Shown here: positions 23,361 through 26,447 of the stretch, in pieces
Layout: every line of letters starts with the position of its first letter
How positions within the stretch are numbered: the first letter of the stretch is position 1
Origin: Candidatus Latescibacterota bacterium
Lineage (GTDB): Bacteria; Latescibacterota; UBA2968; UBA8231
Direction: 5' to 3'
Length of the DNA stretch: 64,000 nucleotides
Assembly (NCBI GenBank): GCA_965208105.1
Contig: OZ242318.1
Span: 1,472,001-1,536,000 of the forward strand
Translations under genes and position numbers: made by a program
Notes under the pieces: model-generated
What the model saw: only the letters and a program-made list of their open reading frames with translations
Databases searched by the model: none
Told to the model about the DNA's origin: nothing

Positions 23361-26300
23361 ATGAGTCTTTCTTTGAAGGCGCCGTGGCACAAGATTTCGT
23401 GGGATGCATTCGTGCAGAAGGGATTGCCCGACCTGTTGGCGGAGCGGATGCCGCTGGCGGGATACCGGGTGGTGTCGAAGGACGAGTACGTCTGTGAATT
23501 GCGCCTTGGGATCCAGGGAGGTCAGGAGGTCTTCTACGCGAACATTCCCCAGCCCGACGAATGGGGCCGGTTCAAGGTGGACGGCTTTTTCCGAATGGTT
23601 GTTCCGGCGCCGACGGAGGTGGATCTCGAGCGTGCCGAGATCCGCTGTGTGGGCGAGCAATTGCTCGATTATATCGCCCGGCGGCTGGAAAACATGCCGG
23701 TTATGCCGGGAGGTGCTGTCGCAACATTGATGCCGCTGGGGGATTGGATCCACGCATTTTTTACAGACGAACCCACCTCCCAGTATTTGCAGGCGACCAA
23801 CCTGCACGATATGTACGTCCACCTGCGCCGGCTGAACATGATCCCCATTTTCGGCGAGGCCACGGAGGGGGTGGAAAATTTCTATCATCCATCGCACCAC
23901 GGACGGGTCTGTCCTTACTGCACTCCGGAAGGACCGAATCTCGGGCGGATCCTGGAGGTGGCTCAGGGGGCGGCCATCCGCGAAGGCAAGCTGGTGATCG
24001 AGGACGACGCGCCTCGAAAGCGGCTGGGCATCGGTGCTTCGATGGTTCCCTTCCTGGAACACAACGACAGCAACCGGGTTCTGATGGGGGTGAATATGAT
24101 GCGCCAGTGGATTGGCGCGCCTGGACCCGACATGCCGCGCGACGAGCAGGGCGCCTGGCACGACTATCACGTCCGATACGACGGCAGGGAAGCGGAATCG
24201 GAACCCGCGATGGTGCAAACGGGGCTCGAACCGGACGACCCGCATTTCTGGACGGGATACAACCTGCTGACCGCCTTCATGGCCTGGAACGGGGACGCAC
24301 TCGAAGACGCCCTCGTGATGAGCGCATCCGCGGCCGGGCGCATGACGCTGCCCGATCCCGTCGAGCCGGGCGACAAACTGAGCAATCGACACGGCTTCAA
24401 GGGAGTGGTGTCGCGGATTGTGCGGGACGAAGAGATGCCCAGATTGTCCGACGGCACCCCGGTTGAACTCATCGTCAGCGTGTGCGGTCTGCCGTCGCGG
24501 CTGAACATCGGCCAGCTGCGGGAAGCCGTCGCCGGGCGCATTGCGAAGGCCGAGGGAAAGCCGCTTGTCGTTCCCGTGCTCGAGGCGCCGAAGGACGACG
24601 AGATTCGCGCCCGCCTGAAGGCCCGCGGGCTCGCGCAGGATGGAATGGATTCTTTGACCTTGAATGGTGAAACGCTGCCGCGCCGCACCACGGTGGGGTG
24701 GGTCTACTGGGGGCGCACCTTTCATCTGGCCGCGGACAAGATTCACGCGGCGGTAACGCCGGACCAACCCTGCCAGGAGTTGGATGAGGCTGATTTTCTG
24801 GCGCTGCAGGAGGCGGGTGCATTCGGGGTCGTGGGCGACCTGTTCAACACCTGCGCCAGGGACCGGAGCGATTCCCATACCCTGGCCGGCCGCGTCGCCT
24901 CGGGACCCGTTGCCGCTGCAGCCCCCTCCCCCCAGTTCGACGATCTTGTGAACGAGTTGTCGAAAGCCGGGGTGGCCGTCGAGCTGGGTGAACACGGGGC
25001 GCGGTTTTCGCTGAGACGGGGTGGAGAGTTGGACCTTGCCCTGCCGGTCCCGCACCCGTGGCTGCCGGGACATTCGCTGATCCACGTGGGCGGGAATGAC
25101 GTGCCCGGCGCACTGCGGCAGTCGAACAGGCGCCTGAGCGAGATGATCGCCAGTGATGCGCCGGAGGTGCTGGTGCGGCGCGCCCTTGAAACCCTGTCCG
25201 GGCGCGTTCGCTCATATTGCCGCTTGCCGCGATTGAGATTTCGGGCGCGCACCTTGTTCAGCGGGCGTTCGGTGGCCGTACCCGCCCCGGAATTGAGATA
25301 CGATCAGGTCGGTGTGCCCGAAAAGATGGCGTGGGCCTTGTTCGGACCGTTCGCCGCGCGTACCGTGGGCGGCGAAGCAGTGGACCGGAGGTCGAAAGTG
25401 GCCAGGGAAGCACTGGATGCAGCCATGGCCGATCTTTGGGCCGTGGTCCTGCGCAAACCCACGGTTTCGCCGACGGCATTCGTGGCCTGCCAGCCGCTGC
25501 GCGTCGAGGGAAACGCCATTCGCGTTTCCGTGTCGAATTGCCATATGCTGGATATGGACTTTGACGGTGACCAGGTGGCGGTCTTCGTGCCGGTTACCGA
25601 GGCCGGCCAGCGCTCGGCCGCGGATCGCCTGTCGGCAGTCGCGCACCTTGCCCGGGACCCGGGCCTGATCGCCCGCGAAAAAATTCACCCAATGCACGAC
25701 GCCATGTTCGGTCTGGCGTACACCAGCATGACGGACGAAGGTCTGGGGCAGATTGGAGCGATCGTCGGGGAAGAGATCGAGCGCGAGGGATTGTTCGTCG
25801 GCAAGAATCAGGTGATGGCCTGGCTGGCGAACGCGATGGCAGGCGATGGGGCTGAAGCCGCATTGAATATGGCGGCGCAACTGCGGGAAAGGGGATTTGA
25901 AGCCGCGCGTAAAACCGGCGCTTCGATGAGCGCGTTCATCGGCTCGTCCCTCCATTGCCCCGATCCTCCCAAGGGCGATGGCCCGGACGTCTGGCGCGAC
26001 TATCCCGACGAGGTATCGGCGATGTTGGCGCAGTTTCGCGGGTTTGACGACGACGACCTCGGGATTCCCGCCCTCCTGGCCCAGTGCGGCGCGCGGGGAA
26101 ACTGGCAGCAGATCAGGCTATACGTGGCACCTCAGGGCGTAGCCCGGAACGCCCTGGGCGGATTCACGCCGCTGAAGCACGGATTTAGAGAAGGGCTCAC
26201 CCCGGAGGAGCTTTTTGCGCGGTCGTTTGCCGCGCGCTGGGGTCTGGCCAACGCCCTGGCCGAGATGATGGCGATCCAGAGCGACCTGGAAACCCGGGGC

Positions 26301-26447
26301 GCTCCCGCCGGCTACGGGGTTCTGGCGCGGGCGCGCAGGTCGGAAACACCGGGCTTCGTATTCGCCCGCGCCGCGGAAAAGGGCGAGAGCGATCCATTGA
26401 CCGACGAGTACAGCCGGTTATTCGCGGGGTTGGGGATTGACGGTTGA
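23361..26447 (+). CDS. Miniature single-chain RNA polymerase beta/beta'-like fusion protein (~1028 aa)
   Basis: AGGAGG RBS, ATG 23361, uninterrupted ORF. Colinear RpoB motifs ([20 protein letters not shown]; [20 protein letters not shown]; AFMAWNG..LED; [15 protein letters not shown]; PSRLNIGQ; HLAADKIHA) followed by RpoC motifs (FSGRSV; RKPT; DFDGDQ at 25557-25574; GARG; FREGL). Confidence 0.93.

Follow-up and report, generated by a model that had tools for sequence, protein, structure and literature searches.

A miniature single-chain beta::beta' RNA polymerase encoded next to an ECF sigma factor in Latescibacterota and other bacteria

Single-chain RNA polymerases of the YonO/RdRP-like type (RdRP, RNA-dependent RNA polymerase) have been proposed to work as RNA-dependent or primase-like enzymes. 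YonO from the Bacillus prophage SPbeta is portrayed in excerpts of PMC5467207 as an efficient, less accurate DNA-dependent RNA polymerase which has no homology to a trigger loop. A different miniature is Orf6 of the yeast cytoplasmic linear (killer) plasmid, in an excerpt of PMC2919709 a 982-amino-acid (aa) fusion of Rpb2 and Rpb1. In the solved holoenzymes with extracytoplasmic function (ECF) sigma factors, as summarized in PMC6648896, the beta' clamp helices carry sigma region 2, and region 4 is held by the flap-tip helix of beta. Here we examined a window of 64,000 nucleotides (nt) from a Candidatus Latescibacterota bacterium (assembly GCA_965208105.1, positions 1,472,001-1,536,000 of the single 4.85-Mb contig OZ242318.1). 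It encodes a single-chain, reduced beta::beta' RNA polymerase, designated mini polymerase below, directly downstream of an ECF sigma factor gene. An earlier note on this DNA, made from the sequence alone, had described the polymerase; the sigma partner and its promoter were not mentioned. Yet the obligate ECF sigma partner together with its promoter is the most informative feature of the locus. The module consists of three elements:

22709-22734, plus strand: TGAACC-N14-GGTGTC, a putative promoter motif of the ECF type that precedes the sigma start codon by 20 nt
22755-23345, plus strand: ECF sigma factor gene, 196 aa, TTG start, upstream of the polymerase gene on the same strand
23361-26447, plus strand: mini RNA polymerase gene, single-chain beta::beta', 1028 aa, 114 kDa, with AGGAGG and an ATG start

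Translation of 23361-26447 yielded 1028 residues without a stop. RpoB blocks are followed by RpoC blocks in native order, as the earlier note had it, and Pfam and a profile alignment agreed. The longest open reading frame (ORF) begins with TTG 23358; because an AGGAGG is located 6-12 nt upstream of ATG 23361, the latter is the likelier start. It follows the sigma stop codon after 15 nt. A canonical rpoB (1243 aa) and an adjoining rpoC (1363 aa), which were to be looked for elsewhere in the genome, were found at ~4.74 Mb of the same contig, 3.2 Mb distant. The mini polymerase therefore is a second polymerase gene. With 1028 aa compared to 2606 aa for RpoB plus RpoC of the same genome it has ~40% of the normal size.

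The sigma factor has regions 2 and 4 only (Pfam Sigma70_r2, 3.8e-15; Sigma70_r4_2, 1.4e-14). It scored 112.7 bits with TIGR02937 (sigma70-ECF, cut-off 42.9) and thus is an ECF sigma; a profile of its family matched solved ECF sigmas with E 1.8e-35. A homolog was present upstream and on the same strand in all 24 loci from species-representative genomes, i.e. 22 Latescibacterota/Latescibacteria metagenome-assembled genomes (MAGs), one Armatimonadetes MAG and one Planctomycetales MAG. Metagenome loci had the sigma in 67 of 80 cases; nine of the 13 loci without it have less than 130 nt of upstream DNA and two have 508-641 nt. When all loci with at least 700 nt upstream were pooled, the window included, the sigma gene was upstream and on the same strand in 81 of 83 (76 by ORF clustering, five by tblastn where the call of the polymerase ORF overran the gap). 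This was the outcome of the homolog and synteny search which the earlier note had proposed. In the two exceptions, L117 and L140, a sigma was not detected by hidden Markov model either. The gap between both genes mostly is below 100 nt. In an all-versus-all clustering of 4449 ORFs from 105 loci the sigma cluster occurred in 90 loci, the next real cluster in 17. Beyond polymerase, sigma and antisense shadow ORFs no cluster was widely shared among these ORFs, and no alpha- or omega-like gene, anti-sigma, sensor, integrase, repeat or defence gene was conserved beside the pair in the 105 loci.

Co-occurrence was examined in 168 genomes of the phylum. Sigma scores were bimodal with orthologs at or above 144 bits and paralogs at or below 130 bits. 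A sigma ortholog was present in 62 of 64 polymerase-positive genomes and in one of 104 polymerase-negative ones; in the latter (G156) it lies at a contig end. G143 and G146 have the polymerase without a sigma ortholog, and the copy in G146 also lacks its N-terminus. G071 carries two modules, each with its own adjacent sigma.

The sigma gene stays upstream even where another gene has been inserted into the pair. In nine loci an ABC exporter with a fused membrane domain lies between sigma and polymerase (L007:4165-5958 and eight close homologs), a 40%-identical homolog of this exporter is inserted in L011, and in two loci (L010:4783-5928 and L004) a 381-aa, weakly TPR-like protein is encoded at this position. 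Such genes would be co-transcribed cargo of the module. In 16-17 loci of one Latescibacterota lineage (L001-L015, L017, L024; e.g. L010:1990-3964) two co-oriented genes are located just upstream of sigma. One encodes 344 aa that include a C4 zinc finger of the DksA/TraR type (PF01258, 33.9 bits); the 315-aa product of the other has no Pfam family. That a secondary-channel-type zinc finger adjoins a polymerase which has no trigger loop may merit attention. As conserved partners the zf-dskA_traR, 315-aa and TPR-like proteins, the ABC transporter and a BlaI/BlaR1-like pair were discarded, all being lineage-specific; tblastn found none of the zf-dskA_traR, 315-aa and TPR-like proteins in the genome of the window.

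Upstream of the sigma gene the strict pattern [TG]GAAC-N14-19-GTGTC was present in 67 of 82 loci, and the other 15 mostly have variants with one mismatch or altered spacing. The consensus TGAAC[C/T]-N14-GGTGTC mostly ends 14-34 nt before the sigma start (up to 225 nt in three loci). The sigmas of the loci compared were 36-80% identical. A GAAC-type -35 element with a GTC-type -10 element is the usual layout of ECF promoters and usually is read as autoregulation. On this usual reading the sigma would regulate its own expression via the motif at 22709-22734. A wider regulon was sought by a genome-wide scan for the motif and rejected; a target set did not emerge and matches were near the simulated level. 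Apart from the sigma's own copy there was one intergenic match in front of an ORF (C1:4091099-4091124, G000), which is at chance level genome-wide. It sits 48 nt before an ORF of 322 aa, which we take, judged by its N-terminal sequence alone, to resemble acetyl-CoA carboxylase alpha. Four complete related genomes had one match each, at the sigma gene; G107 has two. As far as the motif tells, the visible regulon of the sigma is its own operon.

A second ECF-like motif, TGAACC-N13-CGCGTC, was seen on the minus strand ~2-3.5 kb downstream of the polymerase in one lineage (L002-L005, L008-L010, L012 and L017; e.g. L002:11761), near a BlaI-like repressor and a BlaR1/TonB_C protein. Because its -10 element differs it was not counted as a target of the sigma; it probably belongs to a different ECF sigma.

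We then analysed the architecture of the mini polymerase. Pfam domains followed each other in the order Rpb2_3 (residues 141-205), Rpb2_6 (E 8e-40) and Rpb1_2 (E 9e-14), and the best sequence matches to solved chains had an E of 1.4e-47 for beta and of 2.6e-24 for beta'. By these matches the likeness to beta and beta' is far beyond chance. NCBIfam models gave 179.9 bits for bacterial rpoB versus 135.7 for archaeal B, and 100.3 bits for bacterial rpoC versus 24.1 for archaeal A'; on this scale the mini polymerase is bacterial in type. The scores are well below the cut-offs of the canonical equivalogs TIGR02013 (rpoB; 179.9 versus 801.15) and TIGR02386 (rpoC; 100.3 versus 963.5) and those of the models for full-length fusions, NF011417 (178.7 versus 4632) and NF007172 (168.2 versus 5372).

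For a block alignment a profile of 47 family members was compared with RpoB (1243 aa) and RpoC (1363 aa) of the same genome; profile positions run ~0-13 above the residue numbers of the window protein. The blocks were collinear with RpoB and then with RpoC. Profile 124-210 corresponds to RpoB 416-506, 213-273 to RpoB 573-633, 292-326 to RpoB 715-749 and 336-552 to RpoB 1006-1238, up to the C-terminus of RpoB (139.6 bits, E 8.7e-45). Profile 590-777 corresponds to RpoC 263-485 and 889-987 to RpoC 667-774 (E 3e-9). Three more blocks were weak (independent E-values, i-E, of 0.016-0.074). Aligned blocks are 35-43% identical to beta and beta'. The chain is thus divided as follows, with names of elements, F-loop and bridge helix included, which we presume to apply:

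23361-23738, plus strand: N-terminal domain peculiar to the family (aa 1-126), composed of a helix and then a beta-sheet; invariant residues W9, H10 and S13
23739-24128, plus strand: beta fork / Rpb2 domain-3 blocks (aa 127-256), similar to RpoB 416-506 and 573-633 of the same genome
24249-24326, plus strand: beta block with the acidic pair E315/D316 (aa 297-322), similar to RpoB 715-749
24363-25016, plus strand: beta double-psi barrel / hybrid-binding region up to the beta C-terminal motif (aa 335-552), similar to RpoB 1006-1238, with K339, R343, K347 and R380
25107-25217, plus strand: beta' clamp helices (aa 583-619), modelled as helices 583-597 and 602-619, aligning from RpoC 263
25236-25619, plus strand: remnant of beta' switch-2 and the beta' double-psi barrel that holds the metal-binding DFDGD (25557-25571), by Pfam and profile alignment
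26064-26297, plus strand: segment resembling the beta' F-loop, followed by the long bridge helix (aa 902-979 in all, with a 32-residue helix at 948-979), similar to RpoC 667-774

The N-terminal domain has a faint likeness to RpoB 103-128 (block 1, i-E 0.074). In the fork region G181, E190, G191, N245, R248 and Q249 are invariant, and the clamp helices contain two more invariant residues, P601 and L604, besides N589 and R591 with a conservation of 90% or above. A string of 20 residues which had been compared with the C-terminus of beta (residues 522-541, nt 24924-24983) is present and aligns with the C-terminal motif of RpoB. Another one of 13 residues (residues 554-567), which had been called beta'-like, is present as well; its likeness to RpoC 94-127 is weak.

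Whole domains are absent between the collinear blocks, in line with the clean deletions proposed in the earlier note. The profile alignment contained no counterpart of RpoB 129-415 (lobes) and 750-1005 (flap), of RpoC 1-93 (the zinc-binding N-terminus) and 128-262, of ~25 residues past the clamp helices (rudder) and of RpoC 775-1363 (trigger loop, jaw and C-terminal clamp). After the bridge helix the chain has no more than 49 residues left. Local alignment of residues 976-1028 with RpoC 771-1363 returned, in order, short likenesses to the part that follows the trigger loop and to the C-terminal conserved region. As a trigger-loop remnant these were rejected; with shuffled queries such scores came up 85 and 145 times in 200 trials each, therefore the likenesses are not significant. 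The previously suggested descent from bacterial rpoBC is compatible with the higher scores of the bacterial compared to the archaeal models and with deletions which resemble excisions. The direction of change is what we infer from such comparisons: the enzyme would have evolved by reduction of a bacterial rpoB-rpoC pair and would not be a primitive form.

Conservation of catalytic residues was counted across the 47 family sequences (43-84% identity). The metal-binding DFDGD comprises residues 733-737, and translation placed it with all three Asp at 25557-25571 as reported before. D735, G736 and D737 are invariant and position 733 is D in 46 of 47 sequences. R343, K347 and R380 are invariant, too. 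K339 is replaced by R in four sequences and kept in the other 43; of the acidic pair, E315 is shared by 43 sequences and D316 by 46. The E. coli residue numbers of such equivalents are those which we assume to apply. E315/D316, K339, K347, R380, H462 and R698, all listed as catalytic equivalents in the earlier note, are present in the protein of the window. H462, the H1237-equivalent, is H in only 19 of the 47 sequences, however, and R698 is R in 38. Among the pocket residues relevant to rifampicin and streptolydigin, the equivalents of D516 and S531 appear to have changed. The claim of an intact catalytic core thus holds for the metal- and substrate-binding core; it has to be qualified in that a trigger loop is not detectable, rudder/switch-2 are shortened and the H1237-equivalent varies. 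The signature of the two-barrel superfamily was found, i.e. a beta-type barrel with basic residues and a beta'-type barrel with a DxDxD metal motif. The mini polymerase, by this signature, belongs to the two-barrel RNA polymerase superfamily and may be able to synthesize RNA.

A structural model agreed with this assignment. AlphaFold2, run with the alignment of 47 sequences, returned a mean predicted local distance difference test score (pLDDT) of 91.8 and a predicted template modelling score (pTM) of 0.90. In a Foldseek search of the PDB bacterial and plastid beta chains were on top (E 4e-24) and beta' chains were matched as well; no single-chain enzyme was among the first 50 matches. Matches in a library of viral structures were weaker (best E 7.6e-17). 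The structure check recommended in the earlier note thus ended with a confident model which matches beta and beta' chains.

The gene belongs to a discrete family. A word-indexed search retrieved 479 homologs with E at or below 0.001. The best 120 of these mostly had 1000-1060 aa with 42-96% identity at full coverage, and the few named ones among the homologs listed were all called 'hypothetical protein'. An exhaustive search of representatives at 50% identity retrieved more than 80 full-length clusters. Below those the scores drop to fused rpoBC of 1948-2522 aa (E ~1e-61) with the full set of Pfam domains, and because of this gap we consider the family as discrete. The ratio of nonsynonymous to synonymous substitutions (dN/dS, Nei-Gojobori) was 0.110-0.196 in 12 of 12 pairs, compiled without L021 and L023 in which masked N's break the frames. 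Jointly with the many intact homologs this bears out that the gene is kept under selection. Independent contigs from other studies bridged every junction, as had been asked for to exclude a chimera. A DNA contig of 5756 nt from run X9 covers 22600-26489 free of gaps with 91 differences, and the beta/beta' junction is bridged by contigs of X5 (24316-25322) and X6 (23683-24899). The runs with near-identical sequence are labelled as sponge or marine metagenomes. In RNA library X20 the sigma and polymerase genes were matched by eight short contigs of 168-378 nt (90-99% alike), for which carry-over of DNA is possible; stretches not covered in X20 and X5 are uninformative either way.

Members of the family originate from Latescibacterota, Armatimonadota/Armatimonadetes, Planctomycetota, Gemmatimonadota and many unlabelled metagenome lineages. 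In look-alike clusters of the ESM Atlas (1026 and 1006 aa) the commonest labelled phylum was Chloroflexota. Several further clusters in this atlas have 1164-1787 aa with Rpb2_6 and Rpb1_2 in one chain, which suggests that metagenomes hold a greater variety of polymerases that are fused and partly reduced. Two other proteins, P0254 (1948 aa) and P0265 (2309 aa), carry RNA_pol_L and RNA_pol_A_bac (Pfam) N-terminally, followed by the full Rpb2 and Rpb1 series; they look like alpha::beta::beta' triple fusions in one chain.

How might sigma and mini polymerase operate together? From the observed architecture, conservation, selection, synteny, co-occurrence and promoter motif the following sequence of events can be proposed. 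The operon would be driven from the conserved ECF-type promoter, which its own sigma would recognise in a positive autoregulation. The clamp helices that the mini enzyme has retained would be the dock of sigma region 2, with sigma acting as the promoter-specificity subunit, and sigma plus one chain would constitute a minimal holoenzyme that works orthogonally to the RNA polymerase of the host. Catalysis would be a two-metal nucleotidyl transfer unaided by a trigger loop, as in YonO. Catalytic activity, binding of sigma to the mini enzyme and not to the host core only, and the template are inferred parts of this scheme. That the module is an ECF sigma with a 114-kDa single-chain reduced beta::beta' polymerase for which it serves as the specificity subunit has, in our estimate, an even chance. 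The broader proposition, i.e. a natural two-protein machine in several phyla that initiates from its own promoter without alpha, omega, flap, lobes and trigger loop and would be the smallest sigma-dependent RNA polymerase known, orthogonal to the host, we would put a shade below even. A physical partnership of sigma and mini enzyme is favoured because their co-occurrence is near-obligate, because the same sigma family stays attached across phyla, because paralogous modules each keep their own sigma and because no other partner is conserved. Furthermore, the clamp helices were kept while nearly all other peripheral elements, including the flap, were lost. Prediction of a complex between polymerase residues 1-800 and sigma scored 0.52 versus 0.28 for the best control; runs agreed in at least 30% of contacts and the partner had a pLDDT of at least 63. 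In the calibration 58 of 80 solved complexes and two of 110 mismatched pairs came up to the mark set for a pass. Only seven of the 80 solved complexes, but both passing mismatches, passed with a score at or below 0.60, and passes at such scores are more often wrong than right unless the guess is likely beforehand.

Several points weigh against sigma being the specificity subunit of the mini enzyme. The predicted complex amounts to weak support and may reflect a memory of solved sigma-beta' complexes. The flap, which is the dock of sigma region 4 in solved holoenzymes, is deleted in the mini enzyme. The canonical layout and spacing of the -35 and -10 elements would suit the host holoenzyme, and a sigma that is so ordinary an ECF (E 1.8e-35) should be capable of binding the host core. 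The strict motif had six matches in the 4.85-Mb genome versus four in a genome simulated by a first-order Markov model; because the motif is not enriched, the own operon would be the only target in sight for a holoenzyme of sigma and mini polymerase. With trigger loop, lobes and jaw missing, it is uncertain how the enzyme would cope with downstream duplex DNA. Position 731, which we take to be the ribose-contacting residue ahead of the metal motif in cellular enzymes, is N in 24, D in 12, E in nine and Q in two of the 47 sequences (D in the window), and R698, a variable ribose-contacting position, is R in 38 and S in nine. One may also think of a sigma that works with the host core only and has the mini polymerase as the sole output of its regulon, which then would act sigma-free on a special template such as ssDNA or RNA, primase-like or RNA-dependent. 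We consider this as a genuine possibility, although with a chance clearly below even. The sigma is typical in sequence, the -35/-10 geometry is the one achieved in solved holoenzymes via the flap tip which is absent here, each genome has a single copy of the promoter and the visible regulon is the own operon. Moreover, loss of lobes, jaw and trigger loop is a resemblance to sigma-free single-chain enzymes, of which YonO, according to an excerpt of PMC5467207, is active without trigger-loop homology, and in two lineages (L117 and L140; G143) the polymerase has no adjacent sigma. On the other hand, regulators of an effector usually change between phyla, whereas the same sigma family is attached in Latescibacterota, Armatimonadota, Planctomycetota and unlabelled lineages. 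This sigma family is essentially never alone, an anti-sigma or sensor is not conserved beside it, and the predicted complex passes, if weakly. Clamp helices are a retained, conserved feature also of polymerases that have no sigma next to them. Because L117 and L140 are among these, the test of clamp-helix retention does not discriminate.

Other explanations concern the role or the origin of the pair as a whole. The protein might mainly be a decoy which binds sigma, i.e. a mimic of the core that sequesters or hands over the ECF sigma as an unconventional anti-sigma. Retention of the clamp helices, absence of a conventional anti-sigma from the module and the tight translational coupling of both genes would fit; a decoy, however, needs neither an invariant DFDGD, K339/K347, R343, R380, E315/D316 and bridge helix across 47 sequences down to 43% identity nor purifying selection across the whole 1028-aa chain. 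Because the catalytic residues are conserved such a role is unlikely, to our mind very much so. It is also improbable that a mobile or defence element carries the pair as its cargo, e.g. for back-up transcription when phage or antibiotics disable the host polymerase, an idea that is compatible with either mechanism. The distribution is patchy indeed; the polymerase is present in 64 of 168 genomes of the phylum and in 30 of 75 in the window's own family. The copy in the window is 78% identical to copies in another family (f4) and only ~47% to those of the commonest genus of its own family, a pattern that suggests transfer or old paralogy, and flanking genes vary by lineage. Yet integrases, repeats or defence genes are not conserved at the loci, and no PADLOC family matched the mini polymerase; the sigma had weak matches of a helix-turn-helix type only (best E 8.7e-5). 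There were no members among 72,556 plasmid records (PLSDB) and 50,697 phage records (INPHARED), where matches were partial and to ordinary rpoB and rpoC only. The best relatives in IMG/VR were 20-25% identical, with separate beta and beta' genes in the two loci inspected of the best 80 (L030, L034), and the neighbours in the window are metabolic and envelope genes. Finally, a decaying relic or an assembly chimera is excluded. A dN/dS of 0.11-0.20, hundreds of homologs, more than 80 full-length clusters, contigs across the junctions and a confident fold contradict it; the only degraded-looking relative is the copy in G146 that lacks both N-terminus and sigma.

In the window the module is flanked by an Omp85-superfamily protein (18975-20066, in the region 17676-20066) and, on the minus strand, by a 390-aa protein without a Pfam family (27314-28486). 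Both are unrelated to it.

If the pairing of sigma and mini polymerase is physical, it is a natural experiment on the minimum of a multisubunit polymerase required for sigma-directed transcription. Then ~60% of beta plus beta', and alpha, omega, flap and trigger loop in addition, would be dispensable. This would bear on models of the evolution of the multisubunit enzyme and on the question how sigma region 4 is positioned without a flap tip. For synthetic biology it would provide a compact orthogonal expression system of two genes whose promoter is defined and 26 bp long. Should the sigma do no more than activate the gene, a widespread and strongly conserved second nucleic-acid polymerase in uncultured bacteria still remains.

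Compared with bacterial RpoB and RpoC, the mini enzyme has the same order of blocks, the catalytic residues, the clamp helices and the bridge helix. It differs as a single chain without lobes, flap, beta' zinc finger, rudder, jaw and detectable trigger loop, and an alpha- or omega-like gene is not conserved beside it. Full-length rpoBC fusions (NF011417, NF007172), presumably the Helicobacter/Wolbachia type, share the order beta-beta', but have ~2840-2890 aa and all domains compared to 1028 aa here. The nearest relatives outside the family in the search of representatives also were fusions, with 1948-2522 aa and the full Pfam set. In the literature we found no description of a family of miniature beta::beta' enzymes that are encoded on bacterial chromosomes together with an ECF sigma, although Iyer & Aravind 2012 (J Struct Biol), reportedly a survey of unusual bacterial polymerases, possibly mention it. 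Rpb2, Rpb1, RpoB, 'beta subunit', 'RNAP-like' and Gemmatimonad do not occur as terms in the main text of the ECF reclassification paper; its supplementary neighbourhood tables could hold this ECF group. The earlier statement that this is not a described family therefore stands insofar as no paper on the family was found, yet the yeast Orf6 is a precedent for a miniature fusion.

ECF holoenzymes such as those of sigma-E and sigma-H are alike in the bona fide two-domain ECF sigma, the GAAC-type -35 and GTC-type -10 elements and the clamp-helix dock. Unlike them the mini enzyme has no flap-tip helix, lid and zinc finger, an anti-sigma is not conserved and the visible regulon is one operon. YonO likewise is a single chain of ~100 kDa without a detectable trigger loop; it is phage-borne and, in the wording of an excerpt of PMC5467207, has no homology to multisubunit active centres save a few catalytic residues. 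By contrast, the mini family, compared with YonO by description only, has long beta/beta' blocks, was absent from the phage collections and has a sigma partner. Few shared residues in a phage or selfish context, the hallmark of YonO/RdRP-like enzymes, do not apply to it. Orf6 is alike in idea and size, a fused, about halved two-barrel enzyme that keeps the active-site region (excerpt of PMC2919709). There it is thought to be derived from eukaryotic Rpb2/Rpb1 and is carried without a sigma on a eukaryotic plasmid, whereas the mini family has sequences of the bacterial type and is found on chromosomes, where an ECF sigma accompanies it. By this comparison, made by description only, Orf6 appears as the closest published analogue in design and a precedent for a miniature fusion. 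The mini polymerase is a real, conserved and selected gene family, an architectural variant of the two-barrel enzymes with a hitherto unreported dedicated sigma and promoter.

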